Assembly (NCBI GenBank): GCA_944391885.1
Contig: CALXVE010000002.1
Span: 1-61,139 of the forward strand
DNA: 61,139 nt
Direction of reading: 5' to 3'
DNA from: an uncultured Clostridia bacterium
Lineage (GTDB): Bacteria; Bacillota; Clostridia; TANB77; CAG-508
Shown: in pieces, positions 8,201 to 55,420 of the stretch
How the letters are laid out: the number at the start of each line of letters is the position of its first letter
How positions within the stretch are numbered: position 1 is the first letter of the stretch
Made by a program: the position numbers and the translations under genes
The notes under the pieces: model-generated
What the model was told of the DNA's origin: nothing
What the model saw: the letters and a program-made list of their open reading frames with translations, nothing else
Database searches by the model: none

Positions 8201-11200
8201 CTATCTGCTAAATATTGCATATGCTGTGCTGACCATATTCTATTTGTCTTTACATTTTTTAAAAAGAATAATATTCCCTGCTGTGTATCTCCTGTTTTTT
8301 TGTATCTATTAATTAATATTTTGCCATATTTACTATATCCCTGCCCTTTTGTATCTGTTACAACTGTATAATTTTCACTTGATAATATATTAATTTCTGG
8401 AAGTTTTGTAATTGGTTTTGTAAATTCTTTTTGCATATATGTTTGGTCATCTACATATTTTACTTTTTCTACTTTTTCCTTTTCTTCTTTGGTTATAATC
8501 ATATTTTCAGGCATTTTTTCTTGCAATAATATATCTACTGCTTGGATTTGTGGGTTTTCCATAAATCTTTTTTGCAAAATATTATTATTAAATAAATTAT
8601 TTATTGAAAGTAATATTAGTCCTTGGTGATGTGCCATATATGTTTTTACCAGTGCATATTCTTGACCTTTTTTTAGTCTTGTTGGCGTATAGTCAACAGA
8701 TTCGTAAAATCCATATTTTTGATAAAGCCCCATTTTCTTTAATTCTTGCAAGTTTTCTATTACATCTTTTGGCACTTCTGGAAGTGCTAATATACTTGCA
8801 TATGTTGCAACAACTATTTCATCAGCAAGCCCTCTTTTTAAGCCAAGCCAAGGTATTCCAAATGCTTTATATTGATAATTATTATGAAGGTCTTTTAAAT
8901 GAAAAGCAGATTCAGAAATTCCCCACGGAATATTTAATCTTTTTGCATATTCCCTTTGGCACATAAGCATAAATTCAGAAGATTCTGCAAGCAAACTTGC
9001 TTGGTATTTTGGAATATTTATATTTGGCATCCAATATTCAAATGCTGTTCCAGACCAAGATATAAGCCCTTTGTATTTATTTAGTATGGTAAGTGTTCTA
9101 CTTAAGTTATTCCAATGCTTTGCTGGCACATCCTTTTTAGCAATTGCAACTAAACTTGTTTGCCTTGCCTCAGATGCTAATAAATCATAATAAGAATCTG
9201 TTAATTTATTTTCTTCTATATTAAAGCCAATTGAAAACAGTCTTGTTTCTTCATCATATAAATATCTAAAATCCGTTTTTTGGATTATTGTATCTATATC
9301 TAGTATCATTTGCTCTATTTTATTTTTTTGTGTTTCATCCACATTTAAATTTTTCAAAAATTGTTTTAAAACAAATAAATATCCTATAAAATTACCACTA
9401 TCCACAGAAGATATATACCTAGGTTTTAACGGCTCTAATTTTTGAATATCATACCAGTTATATAAATGCCCATTCCACTTTGGAAGATTTGAAATTGTTT
9501 GTAGCATTTTTTCTAGTAAATTTATGGTATCATTTAAATTTTCATATTTTAAATCATAACTGGAAATTACAGCTAGCAAAGCAAGCCCAATATTTGTTGA
9601 TGATGTTCTTAAAACCACTTTAGGTTTTCTATCTTCTTGGTAATTGTCTGGTGGCAAGTAGTTTGTTTTTTCATTTAAATGATCTTTAAAATATTGCCAA
9701 GTACTTTTTCCTATTTCTAATAAAAATTGCTTATCTTCTTCTTTTAGTTCTGTTATTTTTTCTTTTTGTTTTATTTCTTTGCTAATATACCACATTACGC
9801 TAGGAGTTATTAGCCATAAAATAGAAATTAAAAAAACAAAAAGACTAGATATATTTGCAGGTAATATAAATAAAAGCACTAATCCCAAAACTCCAAGGAC
9901 TACATTTGGTAACATGTTTTTGTAATATGATAGTAAATCTTTTTTAGCACTTTTTTCAGCTTCTTCTGCTGTTGTCCACTCAAGAAAATGTTTTTTACTA
10001 ATAAATAAACGGTAGAGTGTTCTTATACATGCATCTATGCTAAAATATGCCTTATCTGGCAAAGTACCTAATGCTAATATTCCCCTTAGTAAAGTTGCTT
10101 TTACTAAAGATATATTTTTGCTAAAAGTTTTTTGTATTGTTTCTGCTTCTTTTTTGGAAATAATACGATTTATTAATTCTAATATTGTGGGCATTAGTGC
10201 TGAAATTATTAGTATTGCTATAATTGGTGCTATATTTATTTTATAAAATAGTTTTAATATCACACAATAAATTATTGTAAAAACAATTAATGTTTCTTGC
10301 AGGCTTCTTGCTAAATTATCAAATATTTTATATTTTGATAATAATGTTAATGGGTTCTTTTTTTTATCACCTTGCTTGTTATATATACTATTAAATAACC
10401 ATGGCACAATTTGCCAGTCACCACGTATCCAGCGGTGTAATCTTGTTTTAAAACTACTATAACTTGTTGGATAACCATCCATTAGCATAATATCTGTAGC
10501 AAGCCCGCATCTTAAATAATTTCCTTCTAATAAATCATGGCTTAGTACTGTATTTTCTGGAATCTCCTTTGCTAAAACCTGTGAAAAAATCTCTAAATCA
10601 TAAATTCCCTTGCCTGTAAATATTCCTTCATTAAAATTATCTTGATATACATCCGAAATTGCATTTGTGTAAGCATCTTTTCCACCAGAACCCGCATATA
10701 GTTTTGTAAATAAACTTTTACCTATATCTAATAATGAAATTCCAACTCTTGGCTGTATTATTCCATGCCCATCTATTACTAAATCTTTTCTTTCATTTAA
10801 AATTGGCTTATTTAAAATATGTGCCATACTTCCTATTAACTCTAAGCCAGTATTTAAGGTTAATTTTGTGTCTGAATCCAATGTTATTACATATTTTATT
10901 TTTGGCATTTCACTTAAGTTTTTAGCTTCTTCTATTGTATTTGCTAAAAAGCTATCTTCTTCTTTTTCCAAAATATATTCATTAAATTGATTTAATAATC
11001 CTCTTTTTCTTTCCCAACCTAAAAAGCACTCTTCTTTTGCGTTCCATTTTCTTTTTCTATATAAAAAATGGAATTTTGGAAACTTGCTATCTGGGTATAA
11101 ATTATTTAATCTTTTTGCTTCTTCTATTCCTGCATTTATTACCTCATCATCAAAGCTTTCCTTTTCGTTTTTTCCGGCTGTTACATCACCTAATAATGCA

Positions 11201-15584: not shown

Positions 15585-18500
15585 TTATATTACAAATTTT
15601 TTAATTAAGATTAATCCTACAGCTAATATTGCAATACATGATAATGTTAATATTACATAACTTTCAGCTGCACCTGTCGAAGGCATCAATATTACTGGAG
15701 CTTCATCTATATCGTCTTCATCTTTTTCATTATTTCCTGGTGTTGAGTCAATATCTGGTGAATCATATTCGTTTTCATCTTGGCTAATTTCTGCCCAGTT
15801 TACTTTTTCTCCCATGTTGTCTTTTCCATTAATCCATTTAAGCACTATTTCTACTGTTGCACTTTCGCCTGGCTCTAATAGAGTATCTGCTAATTGTGTA
15901 GTTATTACTCTACCATCTTCTGTTACTTCCCATTCTGGGTTATCTTCTGGTACAAATTCTAAGCCTTCTGGAATATAGTCTATTAACTCTTTTGCATATC
16001 CTGCAATTTCGCCCTCGTTTGTTACTCTAATGCTAAATCTAAATTTAACTGTTGTTTTATCAATATTTGCTGCTGGAATTTCAACTTTCATTGGTGATTC
16101 TGGGTCATCTTCTGCTGTATGTCCAGATTTTGTTACTGTTGTTTTTCCATTAACTGTTACTATAGATTCTGTTACCCATTTTCTTAAGCTTAAATCAAAG
16201 TATTGTACTTTTACTTTTTCTATATCTATATCATCTTCTCCATCCTCATCATTATCAGGAGTTGAGTCAACGTCATCTATTGGTTCGCCATCTTCATCAG
16301 AATCATCTGTAATTTCTGCTGTATTAATTAAAATTCTGTCAGAAGTATCTGGCTCAGTTACTTTAAATGCAATTTTTAAATCTTTGTAATCAGGCATTGT
16401 CATAGTTTCTGGATTAAATGCTTGTATTAAGTTTGCACCTTCTTCTGTTTCGTTTTCTTTTGATAAGAAATCGGTTTTAATGTAATCTGCTTCTGCTACA
16501 TTTTCTGTTTCAGTTCCATCTGCAGTATACATTTTCCAGTCAAACGCTGTATTTATAGCATGTTCTGGTAAAAACTCTAATCCTTCTGGTAAGTCATCTT
16601 TAACTTCAGAAGCATAACCTGCAACATTGCCTTCATTAAAAATTCTTAATGTATAAATAACTATATTACCATTTGCTACTTGTACTGGTTCTTTTGTATG
16701 TTCATATACATACTCATTTTCTCCAACTTGTGTAAATATTGGAACACGGTTGGTTATTTCTGTTGTTGTACCTCCAAATTCTACACCTGTTATGAATTTT
16801 CTTAATGCCAAGTCAAATCTACGTAATACTAATTTTTCAAAATCATCATCATCTTGTTGTCCTGGTATGTATTCCATACCACTTTCAATCTCAGGGTCTT
16901 TATATTCTGGTAATGTTTCATCACTTGGAATTGTTGCATTATCTTCTTGTGAATCCCTATCTGTAATCCTTGTCCCTTCACTATCTGTAAAGCCTGAAAT
17001 TTCCGCAATATTTGTTATCTTTTCATATAAGTCAATATTTTCCTTTACTCTACATCTAATTTGAACATCAATATAGTCTAATTCTGAATCTTCAGTTCCA
17101 TCAAATGCCTTTAATAACACTTTATCTGTGGCACTTCCATTATCTCTATTTGCATAAATTGCATCTCTATTAGCAGAAAATTCTGTATTAGGCGAAGTGA
17201 TATCTGTTGTTACAGTTCTTCCATCTGTAGATACTTTCCAACCATATCTAGCATTTATCTCATCATCAACAATAAATTCTAATTGAGGTGGTAAATGGTC
17301 TGTAATTTCTGTTACATATCCATCTAAACTACCTTCATTATATACTCTTATTGTATATGTTACTATATCACCATTTGATACTCCAACTGGTTCTTTTGGA
17401 TGATTATATATAGCTGTTGTAGATGTTCCATCTTTTAATGGTGTTGTATCAACGACTGGTGCCCTATTAGATATATTTACTTTATTTCCATTTATATTCG
17501 TCACATCACTAATAAATTTCCTTAGGGCTAGGTCAAAATCTTTTCCCATAATAGTTAAATCTTCATAATCATCATCATCTTGCTCGCCCATACCTTTTGT
17601 TGGGTCTTGTGGATTATATTTTTCTGGGTCTGTTTCTACATTATCTGGCTCTGAATCACGGTCAATTGTGTTTCCATTAATATCTTTATGTTCTGTAATT
17701 TCTGCAATGTTTTTTAAGATTTTATCTTCTTCTCCTACTTTTGCAGTTACTTTACATTCAATTTGTAAATCTATGTAATCTAATTCCAATGTTTCTTTAT
17801 TAAATGCTAAAAGTTTATTTTCTTCACTTGCCAAATAATCTGTTACAACTGTTTTTCCATCTTCTGATGGATTTTTCCAACCAAACTTGGTATTAATTTC
17901 ACTATTTTCTACAAATTCTAAGCCTTCTGGTAAATAGTCGGTTATCTCTGTTGCCCAACCATCAAGTTCTCCTTCATTATATACACGAATTGTATAAACA
18001 ATCGTATCGCCTGTTTCTATTATTAATGGTGTTTTTGTATGTATTTTCTCAACAGTTAGCTTTCCACCTGTTGCCAAAGCTTGTAGTGCTTCGTCTGTTA
18101 TTACTGGTTCTCTACTATTTTCTCCTGTTAATTGGTTACCATTTACAGAATAAATAAATTTTCTTAGTGCTAGGTCAAAATATTTTCCTGGTAAAATTAA
18201 GTCTTCATAATCATCATCATCTTGCTCACCCATACCTTTTGTTGGGTCTTGTGGATTATATCTATCTGGGTCTGTTTCTACATTGCCTGGCTCTGAATCA
18301 CGGTCAATTGTGTTTCCAATAATGTCTTTATGTTCTGTAATTTCTGCAATGTTTTTTAAGATTTTATCTTCTTCTCCTACTTTTGCAGTTACTTTACATT
18401 CAATTTGTAAATCTATGTAATCTAATTCTAATGTTTCTTTATTAAATGCTAAAAGTTTATTTTCATCACTTGCTAAGTAATCTGTTAAAATTGTTTTTCC

Positions 18501-20057
18501 GTCGCCAGATGGATTTTTCCAACCATATTTAGTGTTTATTTCACTATCTTCCACAAATTCTAATCCTTCTGGCAAATAGTCTGTTACCTCTGTTGCCCAT
18601 CCATCAAGCTCTCCTTCGTTATATATACGAATTGTATAAACAATTGTATCTCCTGTTTCTATTAATAATGGAGTTTTTGTATGTGTTTTTTCAGCAGTTA
18701 GTGTTCCACCATTTGCTAGATTTTGAAGTGCTTCCTGTGTTATTACTGGCTCTCTGCTATTCTCACCTGTTAACTGTTCTCCATTTATAGAATAAATAAA
18801 TTTTCTTAATGCCAAATCAAATTTTGCATCTACTTTTTCATTCTCGTATTCAATGCTATCTTCAAAAGGGTTATTTATTTTTTCAATTTGCACTACTGGT
18901 TGGTCTGTTCCTGTTGGGTTATCTACTGACCAATAAATTACTTTTGTTGTAAAGTAGTTTCCACTAATTTTAAATGTAATTAAATCTGTATTTATATTTG
19001 AAGGAATAGAAATATAAAAATTCTCTCCAATTAGGTCTTTTATTGTTGTTTCTTCTTCTACTGGTTCTTTGTTAGCATTTAGATACTCAATATCTGTAAT
19101 TTCATTATTATCTCCATCTGTAAAAATAGCTTCTAATGAATAACTAACTTTCTTTAATTCCTCTAGTTTATATGGTCCAACAATAATTCTGTCTCCATCT
19201 GTTTCTGTTTTTATATCTGTATCTACTATTTCTACCGGGTTAGTACTACTACTTTCATTTCTATAATCATAGCTAAAATCTTCTGCTAATGGTGTTTGAG
19301 TTAAATATGCATATAAAGCATCCATAGCATGAATTCTTGCAGCATCTTCATCATCGCTCATATCAAGCGTTTGATAATTTCCATCAACATTTAATACAGC
19401 ATTTATCTTAATAGAAGGATTTCCCTCAACATGATATTCATCATCATTTGTAAAATACCAAATTGCTAATTGCTGAATTGCATCAATATCATCTTCTTTT
19501 AAATTATCTGTTAGTTTGTCATTTATCCAACTAGTATTTTCATACACCCCTGGGTACTTCGCTGCATATTCTTCTACTGCATTTAAAAGAGCTTGCTTAC
19601 TTTCCTCTGCTATCGATTTATCTTCATCTGAAGCATTTGTTTTAGGTTGTACATAGCATTGGTCTAAAACCCACATTAATCTTTCATAGTTTTTACTTTC
19701 TATATCTGGTAAAGCTGCTAGGTATTTTTTTGTTATTTCTTCAGGCTTCTTCATATCAAAATATTCTGTATAATCTGTTGGTACAATATCTTGTCCCATT
19801 TCAGTTGATCCAAATCCTGGTCCGCCTTTAATACAGTAAAATGTTTCGTTAAGATTATTATTTGTATTATATATTTTCCAAATGTATTTTTCTCCGTTAT
19901 TTACTACCTTGTACCCTTGTCCAGAGTTTCTTAATGGCTTTATACTAAGTGTTATTGGAGTAGTGGCTGTCGTAGCATGAACTTCCACAAAACAGCTAAC
20001 TATGGTAAATAATACAAATGTTAGTACAAATAATAAAATTCCCTTTTTAAGTTTCAT
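15585..20057 (-). CDS. cell-surface adhesin with N-terminal thioester (TQxA-type) domain, five DLALRK-type repeat domains and a C-terminal sorting-signal-like tail
   Basis: 1490 aa with a signal peptide. It has FYC(75)IKGG and IQQ(196)LAIWYF, matching the Cys…TQxA[IV]W thioester-domain pattern. There are five ~210-aa modules, each starting FDLALRKF/FDLSLRKW with …YTIR[IV]YNEG…DYLPEGLEF. The tail reads MPSTG + hydrophobic helix + KKFVI. Confidence 0.7.
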   Translation of the reverse strand: MKLKKGILLFVLTFVLFTIVSCFVEVHATTATTPITLSIKPLRNSGQGYKVVNNGEKYIWKIYNTNNNLNETFYCIKGGPGFGSTEMGQDIVPTDYTEYFDMKKPEEITKKYLAALPDIESKNYERLMWVLDQCYVQPKTNASDEDKSIAEESKQALLNAVEEYAAKYPGVYENTSWINDKLTDNLKEDDIDAIQQLAIWYFTNDDEYHVEGNPSIKINAVLNVDGNYQTLDMSDDEDAARIHAMDALYAYLTQTPLAEDFSYDYRNESSSTNPVEIVDTDIKTETDGDRIIVGPYKLEELKKVSYSLEAIFTDGDNNEITDIEYLNANKEPVEEETTIKDLIGENFYISIPSNINTDLITFKISGNYFTTKVIYWSVDNPTGTDQPVVQIEKINNPFEDSIEYENEKVDAKFDLALRKFIYSINGEQLTGENSREPVITQEALQNLANGGTLTAEKTHTKTPLLIETGDTIVYTIRIYNEGELDGWATEVTDYLPEGLEFVEDSEINTKYGWKNPSGDGKTILTDYLASDENKLLAFNKETLELDYIDLQIECKVTAKVGEEDKILKNIAEITEHKDIIGNTIDRDSEPGNVETDPDRYNPQDPTKGMGEQDDDDYEDLILPGKYFDLALRKFIYSVNGNQLTGENSREPVITDEALQALATGGKLTVEKIHTKTPLIIETGDTIVYTIRVYNEGELDGWATEITDYLPEGLEFVENSEINTKFGWKNPSEDGKTVVTDYLASEENKLLAFNKETLELDYIDLQIECKVTAKVGEEDKILKNIAEITEHKDINGNTIDRDSEPDNVETDPEKYNPQDPTKGMGEQDDDDYEDLTIMGKDFDLALRKFISDVTNINGNKVNISNRAPVVDTTPLKDGTSTTAIYNHPKEPVGVSNGDIVTYTIRVYNEGSLDGYVTEITDHLPPQLEFIVDDEINARYGWKVSTDGRTVTTDITSPNTEFSANRDAIYANRDNGSATDKVLLKAFDGTEDSELDYIDVQIRCRVKENIDLYEKITNIAEISGFTDSEGTRITDRDSQEDNATIPSDETLPEYKDPEIESGMEYIPGQQDDDDFEKLVLRRFDLALRKFITGVEFGGTTTEITNRVPIFTQVGENEYVYEHTKEPVQVANGNIVIYTLRIFNEGNVAGYASEVKDDLPEGLEFLPEHAINTAFDWKMYTADGTETENVAEADYIKTDFLSKENETEEGANLIQAFNPETMTMPDYKDLKIAFKVTEPDTSDRILINTAEITDDSDEDGEPIDDVDSTPDNDEDGEDDIDIEKVKVQYFDLSLRKWVTESIVTVNGKTTVTKSGHTAEDDPESPMKVEIPAANIDKTTVKFRFSIRVTNEGEIAGYAKELIDYIPEGLEFVPEDNPEWEVTEDGRVITTQLADTLLEPGESATVEIVLKWINGKDNMGEKVNWAEISQDENEYDSPDIDSTPGNNEKDEDDIDEAPVILMPSTGAAESYVILTLSCIAILAVGLILIKKFVI
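17538..18821 (-). repeat. 2 x 642-bp near-identical tandem duplication inside the adhesin gene
   Basis: Units 18821-18180 and 18179-17538 each encode a 214-aa FDLALRKFIYS…DDDDYEDL module. Long stretches are identical at nucleotide level. Confidence 0.85.
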
Positions 20058-20097
20058 AGTAATATCCTTCCTTTTTTACCTATTAATATTATTATAT

Positions 20098-20126
20098 ATT
20101 TTACTTTCGTTCTTTTCACTTGTCAA
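20098..20126 (-). promoter_or_regulatory. sigma-A type promoter of the 1490-aa adhesin gene
   Basis: Minus strand: TTGACA (20126-20121), 17 nt spacer, TAAAAT (20103-20098), about 40 nt before the ATG at 20057. Confidence 0.5.
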
Positions 20127-20350
20127 TAGCAGTATTTTCCTGTTTTTCTTATGTTTAAATTTATCAAATTTAGGGTATTACGGAAGTTTGGTTTTCAAGT
20201 TTTTGTTTTCCAAAATACCCATATATTACAATTATATTACATTTTTGTCACATTTTCAAGATTTTATAGGTATAAAAGTAAGTTTTCTCTTGTATCCCTA
20301 GGATTTTAAGTGTGTACTTTACATAAATTTGTCATATTTAATTATATAAA

Positions 20351-20516
20351 ACAATTGTCTATTTATATTATAACGTTGGTCCTTGCTGTCGCCTTCCATC
20401 CCCATGTCAAAAATATTTATAATATTTTGACTTAAGTTAAGTAGTTGGAAGGCTCTAGAACTACACTAACGCTCCGCCTGCGCGTATTGCACTTATATAA
20501 TATAAATAGACAATTT
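20351..20516 (-). mobile_element. MITE-like element, copy 1 (about 165 bp, terminal inverted repeats, no ORF)
   Basis: Termini are ACAATTGTCTATTTATATTATA … TATAATATAAATAGACAATT. The GC-richer core is about 90% identical to the reverse complement of 23585-23750 and includes the central palindrome GTCAAAAATATTTATAATATTTTGAC. Confidence 0.7.
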
Positions 20517-20543
20517 TAATAATATTTCATTATGAAATTGGGA

Positions 20544-20583
20544 TTTAAAAATAATGTGCACCTTGATAAAAGTGCACATTATT
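20544..20583 (-). terminator. intrinsic terminator after the histidine kinase gene
   Basis: Minus strand: AATAATGTGCAC-ttttatcaag-GTGCACATTATT followed by TTTAAAT. Confidence 0.5.
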
Positions 20584-20586
20584 TTA

Positions 20587-22653
20587 TTAGTTTTCGACTG
20601 ATCTATCTTCCAATAAGTAAAATCCCAATGTTACCTTAAATAAATCCCCATCTAAGTATATGTGGAATTTTCCGCCTTGAAGTTCTGTTAGGCTTGAAGC
20701 AATTGAAAGTCCAAGTCCGCTTCCTTCAGTGTTTCTAGCACTATCACCTCTCACAAATCTTTGCATTAATTCATCTGCTGAAATATTTAATTCTTCTTTA
20801 GAAATATTTTTCATTTGAATTACTACACTGTTTTTGTTTGATATAACATCAACATATACCCTTGTATTTTCTAAAGCATATTTTGAAGCATTGGAATATA
20901 GATTTTCTAAAACTCTATATATATACCTTCCATCTGCTTTAATATAAATTGGTTCTTCTGGTAATGTCATTACTTCCTCCAAGTTTCGTGCTTTAAATTT
21001 ATCTTCAAACTCGCCAGAAACTTGTTTTACTAATTCTTTAACCTCAATTTTTTCCATTTTAAGTTTTATATTTCCCGAAGACGCTTTAGAAGCTTCCACT
21101 AAATCTTCTGTTAGTTTTTTTAGTCTTTGAGATTTATTATCAAGTATCATTAAATATTCTGTTGCCTTCTCATTTGGCATTTTTTCCTTTTTTAATAAAT
21201 CCACATAATTAATAATAGAAGTAAGTGGTGTTTTAATATCATGTGATACATTTGTTATTAATTCTGTTTTCAATCTTTCACTTTTTAAGCTTTCATTTAC
21301 AGCATTTGATAGCCCACCTGCTATATCTTCAATATAGATTCCAAGCTGTTTTAGCACTCCTGTTAGTTCATTTTCATTAAGCTTTATATTTGTATTTCCT
21401 TCATAAATGGCCTTTATTGCATTTTGAATAGTGTTAAACTGTTTTATTTTTCTGAATAAAAAGCAAAATGTTGCTATTCCTAATGACACAAGTGCCACGA
21501 ACCAGAAAAGTGAACCACCTGCCGAATATGAACCTACTATACCAAATGTAGCTATAAATCCAACTGCACAAAATCCCCAATATGCAAGTGTTAATTTTGT
21601 AGCAATTTTTCTATTATCTATTAAAGTTTTAATTCCATGCCCTATCATATATAAAAGTGTAGTTTTCCATAGAGTATGTGTTTTCATCCTTTTTACTACA
21701 GTTTCTAATAACAGAATTGCTCCTAAATAGCTTATAATTGTCCCTATTGTAACACCACTAAATATAACTGCCCTAAGTTCTGATTTCAATGCCACAAAGA
21801 ATATCATGCTAAAACCAATTATACAAGATCCTATAAAAAAGGCAATTTCTAGTGGTATTTTATCAAATCCATTTAAGTGAATTCCTGGGCCTTTTCCTTT
21901 TTTACCAATACCATTTAATATAATTAACCCCAATGCTAATAGTGTAGCAATACATAGTGGTATTAAAATTGGTGCCAATGTATTTGCTCTCATAGATAAG
22001 TCATAAGCAAATTTTGACATTGCATAATCATCTCTATATGGCAAATCTTCTACTAATGATGTGTATATTTCTTTAATATTTGAACTGCTTATTTCTTCAT
22101 ATTGGCTGGTATATCTTATTTCTTCCATACTTAAATATGAAATATTGGTATCTATATTTCCGTTTTTAAAGTTCCAATATGTTGGATTTTCTGCTATAAT
22201 TCCCTTAATTTCATCTATTGTATCTGTTCTCATTGTATGCTCTAGGTTAGTAACAGCAATCCTATTTTCATAATCTATCATTAGATATTTAAAATTAGAA
22301 TTATTATCTGTTTTGTACCAAATAATCCCAGTGCCACCATTAATTTGCACATTTTCCTGTATGTCATATCCATATGAGCGCATATCTATCATATCACTTT
22401 GAGAATTGTTTTGCTCTTCGTTACCTTCCTCTTTTAAAAATGTTGGAATATATGTGTTTGCATATATTGACGATAGATAGTTATTTGAAAATATCTTGGT
22501 ATCATAATAATTGCTTGTATTTTCCAGCTCTATTTCTGTATCCATTATTATTAGTCCTGCTATGCATGCAATTAGGATAAGACCAAATATTGGTGCAATA
22601 AAATAGCATATATTTTTGCTTACCCTTGCTAAACTAATTTTACTTTCTTTCAT
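20587..22653 (-). CDS. sensor histidine kinase (HisKA + HATPase_c) with a large N-terminal extracytoplasmic domain and multi-TM region
   Basis: 688 aa. H-box VSHDIKTPLTSIINYVDLL and G-boxes …NTEGSGLGLSIA. It has one N-terminal TM, a ~190-aa external segment, then several TMs. The start overlaps the regulator gene by 4 nt. Confidence 0.8.
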   Translation of the reverse strand: MKESKISLARVSKNICYFIAPIFGLILIACIAGLIIMDTEIELENTSNYYDTKIFSNNYLSSIYANTYIPTFLKEEGNEEQNNSQSDMIDMRSYGYDIQENVQINGGTGIIWYKTDNNSNFKYLMIDYENRIAVTNLEHTMRTDTIDEIKGIIAENPTYWNFKNGNIDTNISYLSMEEIRYTSQYEEISSSNIKEIYTSLVEDLPYRDDYAMSKFAYDLSMRANTLAPILIPLCIATLLALGLIILNGIGKKGKGPGIHLNGFDKIPLEIAFFIGSCIIGFSMIFFVALKSELRAVIFSGVTIGTIISYLGAILLLETVVKRMKTHTLWKTTLLYMIGHGIKTLIDNRKIATKLTLAYWGFCAVGFIATFGIVGSYSAGGSLFWFVALVSLGIATFCFLFRKIKQFNTIQNAIKAIYEGNTNIKLNENELTGVLKQLGIYIEDIAGGLSNAVNESLKSERLKTELITNVSHDIKTPLTSIINYVDLLKKEKMPNEKATEYLMILDNKSQRLKKLTEDLVEASKASSGNIKLKMEKIEVKELVKQVSGEFEDKFKARNLEEVMTLPEEPIYIKADGRYIYRVLENLYSNASKYALENTRVYVDVISNKNSVVIQMKNISKEELNISADELMQRFVRGDSARNTEGSGLGLSIASSLTELQGGKFHIYLDGDLFKVTLGFYLLEDRSVEN

Positions 22654-23378
22654 TTAGCGCTTTTCTCCTTTTCATCTAAATTTTCAATTTTATAACCAAC
22701 TCCCCAAATTACTTTTAGGTATTTTGGCTCTCTTGGGTTTATTTCTATTTTTTCTCTAATGTGCCTTATATGTACAGCAATTATATTTTCTGCACCATAG
22801 CTTTCTTCTTCCCATACATTTTCATATATTTGTTCAATTGAATACACAATTCCTTTGTTCTTAGTCAAAAATTTTAAAATATTGTATTCTGTAGGGGTTA
22901 GTTTTATCTCTTTTCCCTCTACTTCTACTTGTTTTGTATTGTCATTAATTATTAAGTCACCTGAGTGATAAACATTGTTTCCTTTTTCCATTTTATCTGC
23001 AATTGAACCCAAAGAAGTATATCTACGAATTTGTGAGTTTACCCTTGCAATTAACTCTAATGGGTTAAATGGTTTTGTAATGTAGTCATCTGCACCATTA
23101 TTTAGTCCTGTGATTTTGTCATAATCTTCTGATTTAGCAGATAGCATTATAATTGGAACTTTTTTATCCTTTCTTATCAAGTTTGCTGTACTAATTCCAT
23201 CTAATTTTGGCATCATAATATCTAATAATATTAAGTGAATATCATCATTTTCCTTAACAATTTTAAGGGCTTCCATGCCATTATATGCTTTTAAAACATT
23301 ATAACCTTCCTTAGTTAAATAAATTTCAATTGCATTTACAATCTCCTTATCATCATCTACTACTAAAATGTTATACAT
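22650..23378 (-). CDS. OmpR/PhoB-family response regulator
   Basis: 242 aa. Receiver (VVDDD…LLDIMMPKLDG…SAK) plus a winged-helix C-terminus (…LTPTEYNILKFL…VWGVGYK). Confidence 0.85.
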   Translation of the reverse strand: MYNILVVDDDKEIVNAIEIYLTKEGYNVLKAYNGMEALKIVKENDDIHLILLDIMMPKLDGISTANLIRKDKKVPIIMLSAKSEDYDKITGLNNGADDYITKPFNPLELIARVNSQIRRYTSLGSIADKMEKGNNVYHSGDLIINDNTKQVEVEGKEIKLTPTEYNILKFLTKNKGIVYSIEQIYENVWEEESYGAENIIAVHIRHIREKIEINPREPKYLKVIWGVGYKIENLDEKEKSAK

Positions 23379-23584
23379 ATGCTACTCCTTTATTTTTTAA
23401 CTTCCCTTTTATTATATCATTTTTGACACAATTAGTATAGCATGAATTTATTAAGAAAAAAGTTATTAAATTATTAATATTTCCTTAAAATGAACAATAA
23501 GTTCTAAAAAGTCAAATGTGCTTATGATTTTTTAGAACTTATCAATCTCTTTGTCCTTATCTATATCTAATTATACAAAATAGA

Positions 23585-23750
23585 AATTCCCACAATTGTA
23601 TTATATAAGTGCAGGCCGCGCAGGCGGAGCGTTAGCGTAGTTCTAGAGCCTTCCAACCACTTAACCCAAGTCAAAAATATTTATAATATTTTTGACATTG
23701 GGATGGAAGGCGACAGCAAGGACAAACGTTATAATACAATTGTGGGAATT
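23585..23750 (+). mobile_element. MITE-like element, copy 2 (inverted relative to copy 1)
   Basis: Termini are AATTCCCACAATTGTATTATA … TATAATACAATTGTGGGAATT. The core contains GCAGGCGGAGCGTTAGCGTAGTTCTAGAGCCTTCCAACC…GGAAGGCGACAGCAAGGAC and the palindrome GTCAAAAATATTTATAATATTTTTGAC. Confidence 0.7.
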
Positions 23751-23812
23751 TTTCTGACCTGTCCCAAATTACCCTAAAATGGGTAAAAAGGGACTGTCCC
23801 TAATTTCGGGAA
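23751..23812. repeat. GTCCC/GGGAC hairpin module adjoining MITE copy 2
   Basis: Sequence: GTCCCaaaTTACCCtaaaatGGGTAAaaaGGGACTGTCCCtaat. The 11-mer GGGACTGTCCC lies at 23790-23800. The AI-2E gene's stop codon (23800-23802) lies inside it. Confidence 0.65.
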
Positions 23813-24915
23813 TCCACATATTCTTCTATTAATAATTTAATTACTGTGAATATTGGTACAGCTAGGAACATACCCAATACGCCAAAATATGCTCCACCAA
23901 TAGTTACTGCAAAGATTACCAAAAGTGGGCTAATTGATAATGAATTTCCTATAATTTTTGGATTTATAATATTTGCATCTATTTGTTGAAGTATGATTAC
24001 TATTACTGCCATTAGAATTGCTTGACCTAATCCGCCTGTAAATATTGTAACAATTATTGCAATTATTACCGCAATAATTGCACCAAAATATGGAATCAGG
24101 TTAAATAAGCCTATCATAAAGCCTAATAATACAGAATATTTTACACCTATAATTGACATTGCAATAGATGTTAAAACTCCAATCACAAATGCATCTAGCA
24201 CTTGCCCACCTATAAAGTTAAAAAATACTTCATTTGATTTATTAAAATATTTTGCCACCATTTTATATGTATCTTTAGTAAATATTGCGCGTGCTAATTT
24301 CTTAAAGAAAGCTAGTATTCTGCTTCTTCCTGCTAATAAATATATGGAAACTATGAAAGATACAAATATATTAAACACACTATTTACAACATTTATAGCA
24401 CCTTTTACATATTCTGTTAATCTTTCCATATTTAAATATTGTTTTAAATCAATATTTTGTATGCTTTGGATTAAATCTTTTATAACTTCATTTTTCCAAA
24501 CTGAATCCTCTGGCAAAGCATTATAGTTTTCCAATGTTGAGTTATAGTAACTTCCAAAATTATTAATAAAATCTGTAATACTTCTAGTTATATTTGGAAT
24601 AACAAAATTTAAAGCTATAATTACTAATAATATTGCAATAATATACACTGTAATAATAGACAATCCTCTTGCTCTTTTTGCTATTATTTTAGGTTTTTTT
24701 ACTTTTCTATATGCACTTTCAACTTTTCTACAAGGAATATAAAATAAATATGCAATTAACACACCCATAATAAATGGCATTAATACATTAAATAGATTAG
24801 AAAACCATTCACCAATTTCTGTAAAATTATCCAATAATTTATAAACTAGAATAATTGCTAAGCCTAGGCTAAACCAATAAAGCCATTTGCTAAAGCCTTT
24901 TTTCTTTTCTTCCAT
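23800..24915 (-). CDS. AI-2E family transporter (PerM/UPF0118)
   Basis: 371 aa, polytopic. The conserved C-terminal half …LIPYFGAIIAVI…NPKIIGNSL.ISPLLVIF… is typical of AI-2E/UPF0118 permeases. Confidence 0.75.
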   Translation of the reverse strand: MEEKKKGFSKWLYWFSLGLAIILVYKLLDNFTEIGEWFSNLFNVLMPFIMGVLIAYLFYIPCRKVESAYRKVKKPKIIAKRARGLSIITVYIIAILLVIIALNFVIPNITRSITDFINNFGSYYNSTLENYNALPEDSVWKNEVIKDLIQSIQNIDLKQYLNMERLTEYVKGAINVVNSVFNIFVSFIVSIYLLAGRSRILAFFKKLARAIFTKDTYKMVAKYFNKSNEVFFNFIGGQVLDAFVIGVLTSIAMSIIGVKYSVLLGFMIGLFNLIPYFGAIIAVIIAIIVTIFTGGLGQAILMAVIVIILQQIDANIINPKIIGNSLSISPLLVIFAVTIGGAYFGVLGMFLAVPIFTVIKLLIEEYVDSRN

Positions 24916-26759: not shown

Positions 26760-27007
26760 AAGATATTTGTTCCCTCCTTTAAAAGCAACAATTGTATTAT
26801 ACCATTTTTTAGAAGGTTTGTCAAATTTTTGTAACATTCTTGTAATGCTACGGCCAGTTGCTTTTCAAGATTTGGGTGTTTTTTTAAGCTTTTGTAAATC
26901 CCCATATTACATTATATGCGAGCTTGTACAAGAATATGCTTTTTTTGTTGTATTTTTTTCATAAATATGATATTATTGGATAAACTATTAACAAAGGAGT
27001 GAATAAT

Positions 27008-32099: not shown

Positions 32100-32214
32100 A
32101 AATTTCACACACTAATATTGACAAGCTCACTTAACCCATGTCAAAAATTTATTTTTGACATGCGGAAGGAAGGCGACAGCAAGGACAACCGTTATAATAC
32201 AATTGTGTGGAATT
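32100..32214 (+). mobile_element. MITE-like element, copy 3 (internally deleted)
   Basis: The right 100 nt (…CTCACTTAACCCATGTCAAAAATTTATTTTTGACATGCGGAAGGAAGGCGACAGCAAGGACAACCGTTATAATACAATTGTGTGGAATT) align with copy 2. The left terminus is degenerate (AAATTTCACACACTAATATT). The GC-rich left arm is missing. Confidence 0.6.
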
Positions 32215-46632: not shown

Positions 46633-46825
46633 AAATTGCCTCTTAAAATATAACTAAAGCATTAGAACTGTCTTTTTCGATTTTTAAAACCTTTCCCCTT
46701 TTGGACATCTGTAACTCGGCATAAATGCCTCGAACAGCTGTCACAATGGTCGCCCACGTAAGGCCTTAAAAATCTCAAAAGAAAGTGTCTAATGCTTTAT
46801 AGTTCACTTTAATTAAAGGCAATTT
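46633..46825. other. 193-nt nested-hairpin element filling the whole convergent intergenic gap (structured RNA of 6S-like shape, or a MITE)
   Basis: Outer arms are AAATTGCCTCTTAAAATATAACTAAAGCATTAGA / TCTAATGCTTTATAGTTCACTTTAATTAAAGGCAATTT. The second tier is CGATTTTTAAAACCTT / AAGGCCTTAAAAATC. There is an asymmetric internal loop. The apical hairpin is GACATCTGTAACTCGGCAT-aa-ATGCCTCGAACAGCTGTC. The core is GC-richer than its surroundings. Confidence 0.5.
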
Positions 46826-55371: not shown

Positions 55372-55420
55372 TTAAAGACAAAAGTGCCGCTTTAGGGACT
55401 GTCCCCAAAAGCGACACTTT
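55372..55420. terminator. long hairpin terminator carrying GGGACTGTCCC at its tip
   Basis: AAAGTGCCGCTTTAGGGAC-t-GTCCCCAAAAGCGACACTTT, with T-runs on both strands, directly after the cotF-like stop at 55426. Confidence 0.6.

Follow-up and report, generated by a model that had tools for sequence, protein, structure and literature searches.

Nested palindromic repeats in an uncultured chicken-gut Clostridia lineage, with a RAYT-like transposase as their candidate mobilizer

Background

Several described systems of bacterial palindromic repeats bear on R1, a family of nested palindromes that we describe here and of which two copies lie in inverted orientation around a two-component system (TCS) operon in a 61,139-nt stretch of DNA (the window) from an uncultured Clostridia bacterium. 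Bacterial interspersed mosaic elements (BIMEs) of Escherichia coli include RIB/RIP, in which a site for the integration host factor (IHF) is placed between two repetitive extragenic palindromic (REP) sequences. Correia/NEMIS in Neisseria, RUP in Streptococcus pneumoniae, bcr1 in the Bacillus cereus group and ERIC/IRU are palindromic miniature inverted-repeat transposable elements (MITEs), and some palindromic MITEs are co-transcribed with neighboring genes. The insertion sequences IS1397 and ISKpn1 insert into the loops of REP (palindromic unit, PU) sequences, and quasi-palindrome template-switch mutagenesis, described by Ripley and by the Lovett laboratory, is known from short quasi-palindromes in laboratory reporter genes. 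Genes of REP-associated tyrosine transposases (RAYTs) flanked by REPs or by REP doublets forming hairpins (REPINs) are a described arrangement (Bertels & Rainey 2011, PMC3116915). For Clostridia, Bertels et al. 2017 (PMC5581495) mention RAYTs of group 1 alone, and few repeats associated with them.

The window is contig C2 (CALXVE010000002.1) of the metagenome-assembled genome (MAG) G000 (GCA_944391885.1), a chicken-gut Clostridia genome of 1.13 Mb in 84 contigs with 29% G+C. We compared it with its sister species G003, with other species of the same genus, such as G008 and G012, and with further relatives, including G010 and G272 of the same bacterial family. R1 is a new family within the REP/BIME/REPIN/MITE group, with an unusual nested build. 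Our best explanation, to which we assign a probability of roughly 55%, is that its copies are dispersed, non-coding, non-autonomous nested palindromes that would be mobilized in trans by a RAYT-like transposase, and that they are independent of each other rather than the ends of a cassette.

Results and discussion

R1 copies in the window and in the genome

A sequence-only reading of the window had described 20351-20516 and 23585-23750 as inverted copies of one MITE-like unit with terminal inverted repeats (TIRs) and a central palindrome, and this description held. BLASTN aligned the two units with 89.6% identity over 144 nt, and a repeat search of the window returned two pairs of inverted arms, 20425-20505/23596-23676 (81 nt, 90%) and 20363-20428/23674-23739 (66 nt, 91%). 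The TIRs are perfect in both units, with 20 nt in copy 1 (20353-20372/20496-20515) and 22 nt in copy 2 (23584-23605/23730-23751), and the central palindrome GTCAAAAATATTTATAATATTTT(T)GAC is seen in each. The R1 copies and sites in the window are as follows.

20351..20516, + strand: R1 copy 1, subfamily B, with inner arms AATTGTCTATTTATATTATA only and no outer arms
23584..23751, - strand: R1 copy 2, with inner arms of subfamily A AAATTCCCACAATTGTATTATA and its core on the - strand
32128..32214, - strand: R1 half copy, consisting of the left arm and the core up to the central palindrome; the orthologous site in G003 is full
26875..27002, no strand: empty site, where G003 holds a 258-nt R1 copy

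The core of copy 1 (about 20373-20495) runs on the + strand from a 5' box GTCCTTGCTGTC to a 3' box GCGCG(T)A, and an outer arm of copy 2 is recognizable on one side only.

The MITE-like part of this reading also held, in that the unit is a multi-copy, non-coding, TIR-bounded repeat with about 30 copies in the 1.13 Mb, several of them at contig ends. A BLAST search gave 33 hits of at least 60 nt in G000, 25 of which are complete with both flanks, and in chicken-gut metagenomes holding the organism the summed contig depth of R1 is 36-56 times that of its flanks. All copies are intergenic, in co-directional, convergent and divergent gene contexts. The R1 repeats break the assemblies of the lineage and can mislead the annotation of its intergenic regions.

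Among 31 relatives examined, G000 and G003 alone have the element. Among 185,579 species genomes the G000-type core pattern has a sole other match, CALXUZ01, which appears to be G003, and it has no match among viral contigs; a two-box pattern has seven matches in JGI metagenomes, all of them due to chance and located in GC-rich coding DNA. G010 and G272 contain diverged relatives, which share the two boxes but have arms of their own and another co-varying hairpin in the center. Three of those in G010 (L003) lie in consecutive intercistronic spacers of a fatty-acid synthesis operon, all in sense orientation, upstream of accB-like, fabZ-like and accC-like genes.

R1 is built as a palindrome within a palindrome

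An alignment of all copies with their flanks shows that most of them measure 260-330 bp and consist of one palindrome nested in another. Their outer arms, GGACGGAGATTTTTGACAA, have the form (T)GTCA(C/A)TnnGGACGGAGATTTTTGACAA, and their loop holds a module of about 165 nt, in which the inner arms CACAATTGTATTATA (consensus ..TCCCCACAATTGTATTATA) enclose an asymmetric core; spacers of 15-25 nt separate the inner from the outer arms. The unit of 165 bp in the sequence-only reading is this inner module, and most family members are longer, with the outer pair of arms in addition. The core measures 99-106 nt at about 55% G+C and reads ACGTTTGTCCTTGCTGTC, then GCCTTCC..CATGTCAAAAAT/ATTTTTGACATG..GGAAGGC, then CTCTAGAACTACGCTAACGCTCCGCCTGCGCGGACTGCACTT. 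Two boxes in it, ACGTTTGTCCTTGCTGTC and CYTGCGYGGACTGCACTT, are invariant, and the hairpin at its center co-varies. Copy 1 and C56:4834-4970 make up subfamily B, in which the arms are AATTGTCTATTTATATTATA and outer arms are lacking; C11:2875-3012 is related to it. In a subgroup of copies on contigs C10, C13, C14, C16, C56, C67 and C74, the left and right spacers differ consistently and are linked to the orientation of the core, indicating that the composite is copied as one unit.

Outer arms also occur on their own. Short palindromic doublets of arms only, with 10-60-nt loops, are found in seven other species of the genus (11 in G012, 4 each in G004 and G015, 3 in G014, 2 in G013, and 1 each in G006 and G011; none with a reversed-pattern control), and a core-less copy is found in G003 as well. 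In G000, 15 of the 16 occurrences of the outer-arm motif lie around cores, and there are no short-loop doublets. We therefore rejected an insertion of the core into pre-existing host palindromes of G000, since arms-only motifs are essentially absent there. A derivation of the arms from the target was likewise rejected, because empty sites have no arms.

R2 repeats, a RAYT-like gene and the mobility of R1

A second repeat family, R2, consists of GGGAC(A/G)G units with the sequence TTAGGGACAGTCCCCAATCTACCACTTTTGTCTTACTTAGGGACAGG and variants of it, which we divided into R2a (GGGACAGTCCCCAATCTACCACTTTTGTCTTACTTAGGGACAGG), R2b (GGGACAGTCCCTTTTTACCCATTTGTGGGTAATTTGGGACAGG) and R2c (with GTCACCCTATTTAGGGTGAC). 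The sequence GGGACAGTCCC occurs 42 times in the 1.13 Mb of G000, and a two-motif R2 pattern occurs 32 times in G000, 14 times in G003 and 5 times in G016, with no occurrence in 28 other relatives or in reversed-pattern controls. All three genomes with the R2 pattern have a RAYT homologue. The features concerned are listed below.

23759..23800, - strand: R2b REP-like unit GGGACAGTCCCTTTTTACCCATTTTAGGGTAATTTGGGACAG, which abuts copy 2, points to it and reaches the AI-2E stop codon
32228..32352, - strand: R2 cluster (GGGACAGTCCC.., GGGACGGGTCCC..), directly outside the R1 half copy
C23:10167-10946 of G000: RAYT-like Y1 gene, a 259-aa open reading frame matching Pfam Y1_Tnp with 49.7 bits (cut-off 23)
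C23:10104-10150 (+) and 11120-11168 (-): R2a units that bracket the RAYT-like gene and face inward

The R2 unit adjoining copy 2 is absent from G003; a further R2 unit of the window lies at 55395. Another stretch of the window, 46633-46825, forms a nested hairpin with a GC-rich center; it is unrelated to R1, has about six weak relatives in the genome, and probably belongs to a third palindromic repeat family.

There is one Y1_Tnp gene in G000 and there are two in G003. The best NCBIfam match of the G000 protein is the REP-associated tyrosine transposase NF047646 (E 3e-18, 66 bits), while its match to the IS200 transposase reaches an E-value of 0.01 only; HUH (HIH) and RYIHRNP motifs are visible in its sequence, and it has a C-terminal helix-turn-helix domain. 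Bracketed by R2a units, the RAYT-like gene shows the arrangement known for RAYT genes and REPINs, and the two together look like a REP-RAYT system of uncultured Clostridia. Of 58 arm windows, 10 have R2 units directly outside the outer arm of R1, and all 10 point inward (a chance of about 0.002); where R2 and R1 are fused, the GGAC of the outer arm gives way to the second GGGAC of R2. We rely on this orientation rather than on the adjacency of R1 and R2 as such, which is a weak argument for enrichment within intergenic space. Inward-facing R2 units enclose the RAYT-like gene just as they do many R1 copies, and its product is the best candidate for the mobilizer.

The sister species differ in which sites are filled. 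At four sites G003 has a copy where G000 is empty or half-filled; conversely, only G000 has copy 2 and, at the C25 locus, the core. Among the polymorphic sites of G000 are C6:24899-24926 and C17:6752-6837, besides 26875-27002 and 23491-23752 of the window. At three filled/empty pairs the whole palindrome is either present or absent, in one case together with R2 units, and no clean target-site duplication is seen at the AT-rich junctions, which fits a Y1-type insertion. We propose that R1 may move as a single-stranded hairpin without duplicating its target, and that the single RAYT-like HUH/Y1 transposase of G000 would act on it in trans.

Several observations weigh against this explanation. 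The link between the RAYT-like gene and R1 is circumstantial, and the protein scores 66 bits where the curated cut-off of NF047646 is 80; a look-up among solved structures gave no sequence match. There is a resemblance between the outer arm CACTAAGGACGGAG and ACTTAGGGACAGG of R2, but it is short (ACTAAGGACGGAG/ACTTAGGGACAGG), and the R2 profile has no significant alignment to the outer-arm motif. Three species in which no RAYT was hit (G004, G006 and G015) have arms-only palindromes, and six RAYT-positive species have none of them. The scarcity of intergenic space might partly explain why R1 and R2 adjoin. Without an outgroup, insertion and deletion are indistinguishable, and at least one of the 'absences' is a deletion; the AT-rich junctions could conceal a short target duplication. 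Finally, the cores are conserved in place more strongly than the neighboring genes (next section), which is not expected of a purely selfish, decaying repeat.

A classical MITE is unlikely in our judgment; it would be a DDE-type insertion sequence shortened by internal deletion and moved by a TIR-binding transposase, with its autonomous partner missing from the fragmented MAGs. R1 is small, non-coding, multi-copy, bounded by TIRs and polymorphic between sister species, the unit of about 165 nt in subfamily B resembles a textbook MITE, and insertion sequences are often lost from MAG assemblies. However, the arms vary between copies and species whereas the sub-terminal boxes are conserved, the opposite of the pattern expected under a TIR-binding transposase, and no target duplication is visible at the filled/empty pairs. 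The sequence-only reading had suggested that an autonomous element with the same termini be sought; none turned up in the self-comparison of G000, in the 185,579 species genomes and the viral contigs searched with the core pattern, or in the JGI metagenomes, within the limits set by MAG incompleteness, and on no viral or metagenome contig does the core lie next to a transposase gene. Nor did the self-comparison of G000 reveal a transposase-like multi-copy sequence, apart from Rpn/PD-(D/E)XK-like paralogues named by eye. The latter are multi-copy genes on contigs C8, C35, C81, C82 and C83 that are 70-93% identical and look like Rpn/YhgA-like PD-(D/E)XK 'putative transposases'.

The core is conserved in place

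Twelve R1 loci are orthologous between G000 and G003. Substitutions per site across these pairs amount to 0.024 for the core and 0.034 for the inner arms, and they reach 0.052 both for the outer arms with their spacers and for the flanks, for which we used 300 nt of largely coding sequence; hence the core changes at less than half the rate of the flanks (Fisher p=1e-6). At copy 1, whose orthologue stands at the same site in G003, the 122-nt core shows three substitutions. Paralogous cores are on average 92% identical, and their arms are far more diverged. In 9 of the 12 pairs no copy matches better than the positional orthologue, and in the remaining 3 the G003 core is nearer to another G000 copy, pointing to an occasional exchange of cores between loci; for instance, where G000 has C6:19849-20006, G003 carries a core with 99% identity to the C13:9183 type, with the arms almost unchanged.

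Its conservation in place makes the core a candidate functional site, and its conserved, unpaired boxes most likely form a module for sequence-specific recognition by a protein. By extension, the asymmetric core of about 100 nt might be a functional module of relevance to the host, a DNA or RNA structure bound sequence-specifically by a protein and carried in REPIN-like hairpins, under purifying selection at about 30 loci, exchangeable between them and invertible in place. We hold this extension to be quite unlikely. If it were true, a reduced Clostridia genome of 1.1 Mb would carry genome-wide orientation-switchable sites, possibly serviced by a RAYT-helix-turn-helix fusion.

Arms change together at the DNA level

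The sequence-only reading had inferred from the two copies that the ends of a unit change together, and attributed this to a hairpin or fold-back intermediate or to one protein recognizing both ends. The co-variation is real: over the inner 22 nt we counted 70 mirrored deviations from the family consensus, compared with 18.3±5.1 when arm partners were permuted (1000 runs, maximum 35). Also real is the mirrored 6-nt difference at the termini (CAATTGTCTATTTATATTATA versus CAATTGTATTATA), but it is not private to copy 1. Arms of the copy 1 type recur in C56:4834-4970 and in the G003 orthologue, and therefore the 6-nt change is a trait that has propagated with the subfamily.

The orthologous loci show by what events the palindromes change. 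The core is flipped in 2 of the 12 pairs: at the C1 locus the breakpoints lie in the outer arms, so that spacers and core are inverted together, and at the C5 locus they lie in the inner arms. No core is left in G003 at the C25 locus, where one inner arm with its spacer, folded back at the palindromic ACAATTGT, now makes up both arms. Half-deleted alleles stop at the central palindrome, as in window 32128-32214 and at the C1 locus in the chicken-gut metagenome run X3; contigs from Logan break inside the repeat, and those that could be read gave one half-deleted allele and one replaced segment. Beside the half-deleted C1 copy, run X3 (L048 617/618; G000 C1:39816) also carries a 1254-nt insertion relative to G000. 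These flips, half-deletions and the fold-back are signatures of recombination and template switching within palindromes, and such processes are sufficient to explain the 'compensatory' changes of the arms. Inter-arm inversion, half-deletion and fold-back, together with templated quasi-palindrome correction, keep the arms complementary, and a single transposase reading both ends explains the co-variation less well than such concerted evolution of the DNA.

That the core encodes a structured non-coding RNA, acting in trans or in cis from within palindromic DNA, with the co-variation of the arms reflecting selection on RNA pairing, appears very unlikely to us. The core stands out by its high G+C content in a genome of 29% G+C, its evolution is slow as described above, its central helices co-vary between the G000-, G010- and G272-type copies, the three G010 copies between the fab operon genes are all in sense orientation, and both units fold far better than shuffled sequence (z -8.2 to -9.5, as DNA and as RNA of either strand). 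However, both strands fold equally well, and arm mismatches are 27 of the G.T type against 20 of the A.C type, without an RNA-type strand bias. Since the wobble-type mismatches are balanced, RNA pairing on one strand is not what is kept, and we ruled out selection on the arms at the RNA level. A match to a known structured RNA was the check that the sequence-only reading had proposed for this possibility, and no Rfam family was found (cmscan, E up to 1, positions 19500-24500: 0 hits); ARAGORN reported no tRNA or tmRNA. In addition, the core flips in place between sister species, and its orientation relative to co-directional neighboring genes is mixed (8 the same, 4 opposite), as are the gene contexts, so that a terminator or cis-RNA role tied to gene direction is unsupported. 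Runs labeled as RNA-Seq behave like DNA, with a depth ratio of 75 compared with 36-56 in DNA runs and, in one low-depth run, no enrichment, and thus show no clear excess over the DNA copy number. We also considered inward promoters in the outer arms (TTGACA) and rejected them, as the boxes are there but their spacing to the -10 element is not conserved. A string in the core that resembles a tmRNA tag, AACTACGCT, was judged a coincidence.

The flips might also suggest invertons, in which a site-specific recombinase flips the core between its arms and thereby switches the expression of neighboring genes. The arms are indeed conserved inverted repeats around an asymmetric segment, and both core orientations exist at two orthologous loci; nevertheless, the two flips break in different arms, inner in one case and outer in the other, leaving no fixed crossover site, and their company of half-deletions and fold-backs points to homology- or replication-driven events. 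Moreover, we found no outward promoter with proper spacing in the core, and the flips are seen at the between-species scale only, all of which makes this possibility highly improbable.

The TCS operon is not cargo

The operon and its surroundings include these features.

20587..23378, - strand: TCS operon of an OmpR-type response regulator (RR, 22650-23378) and a 688-aa histidine kinase (HK, 20587-22653)
20548..20585, - strand: terminator-like hairpin directly after the HK stop codon, outside the repeat, with 17-nt arms (94%) and a 10-nt loop
23497..23542, no strand: AT-rich hairpin with arms of 18 nt, lying between copy 2 and the promoter region of the RR
L015 9042-10334 of G003: extra ATPase gene, opposite window 23491-23752

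The RR-HK operon is vertically inherited. HK orthologues across the genus are 56-98% identical (98% in G003), and the order adhesin-HK-RR-AI-2E-ExoIII-G5 is the same in G003, G008, G010 and G012. Of these species, G008 has no R1-type element at the TCS locus, G012 has no R1 core there but an arms-only outer-arm palindrome in the RR/AI-2E spacer, and G010 has one diverged R1-like element in that spacer. Copy 2 is absent from the orthologous locus of G003, where its place is taken by the gene of a 430-aa AAA_14/DUF4143 ATPase, of which no homologue exists anywhere in G000.

Accordingly, the proposal of the sequence-only reading that the TCS and the two repeats form one composite, MITE-bounded mobile cassette, which rested on two inverted copies bracketing exactly one operon, is refuted by a condition that this reading itself had set, because the presence/absence comparison finds the operon at the same place across the genus without the repeat pair, including G008 and G012 without an R1 core there and G003 with copy 1 only, the two copies belong to different subfamilies, and about 30 further copies adjoin unrelated genes. 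The flanking units are not copies of one transposition-competent element, as they differ in subfamily and neither codes for a protein; they flank the TCS by chance, occupying two of the many filled intergenic spacers. Recognizing that the TCS is not mobile cargo removes a false lead.

The signals assigned to the operon by the same reading are there. The hairpin at 20548-20585 is conserved in G003 and is a plausible terminator, but with its 10-nt loop it was not listed by our consensus scanner. The promoter sequence TGATATAAT does lie at about 23411-23419 on the - strand and, lacking a -35 box, was not listed by the scanner either; together with the downstream ribosome-binding site AAAGGAG, it is plausibly an extended -10 promoter, identical in G003. 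The homologue of the AT-rich hairpin at 23497..23542 lies upstream of the extra ATPase gene in G003.

The RR/AI-2E spacer is a hot spot of rearrangement, holding the ATPase gene in G003, the R1-like element in G010, the palindrome in G012 and, in a contig of run X3, 1432 other letters in place of 23491-23752 with copy 2. On the other side of the operon, the DUF11/thioester-domain adhesin (window 15585-20057; L015 1741-5571) has 1490 aa here and 1276 aa in G003. The two align over residues 627-1490 only, with 88% identity where neighboring genes reach 97-99%; it is a fast-evolving surface protein.

Comparison with known systems

Our analysis documents REP/BIME-like repeats and a candidate RAYT in small-genome uncultured chicken-gut Clostridia, where they have hardly been described, and it provides a natural data set on palindrome dynamics with mirrored arms, in-place flips, fold-back loss and core exchange. 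One close likeness is that to REP/REPIN-RAYT systems. Here, too, there are abundant short GC-rich extragenic palindromes and inverted doublets forming long hairpins, and a low-copy Y1/HUH gene is flanked by inverted repeats (R2) which are themselves abundant in extragenic space. Copies are inherited for the most part vertically, as the many orthologues in the sister species show, hairpins are maintained by paired changes, and no target duplication is seen. On the other hand, most of the REPIN populations known go with RAYTs of groups 2 and 3 in Gammaproteobacteria, and the R1 doublet holds a 165-nt inner module with a conserved asymmetric core. In addition, the protein described here bears a further helix-turn-helix at its C terminus, its score falls short of the NCBIfam RAYT cut-off, and its link to R1 is a putative one.

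BIMEs likewise combine REP-type palindromes with conserved motifs in a fixed orientation and place a non-palindromic central motif between inverted REPs, but their sequences are unrelated to R1 and the R1 central module is far longer. We know of no protein that binds this module. With the palindromic MITEs, R1 shares a dispersed intergenic distribution, a size in the range of 100-300 bp, terminal inverted repeats and a strong hairpin potential. However, those elements have conserved termini, defined target duplications (TA for Correia) and DDE transposases, whereas R1 has variable termini, a conserved interior and no visible duplication. IS1397 and ISKpn1 offer a parallel for one repeat family sitting at the hairpin apex of another to give a nested palindrome; in R1 the inner partner is non-coding, nearly every outer palindrome of G000 is occupied, and the composite is copied as a unit. 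Lastly, our case for quasi-palindrome template switching comes from natural variation in arms of 20-100 nt, rather than from short quasi-palindromes in reporter genes, and such switching would explain the mirrored substitutions and indels of the arms, the fold-back and the inversions without selection on structure.

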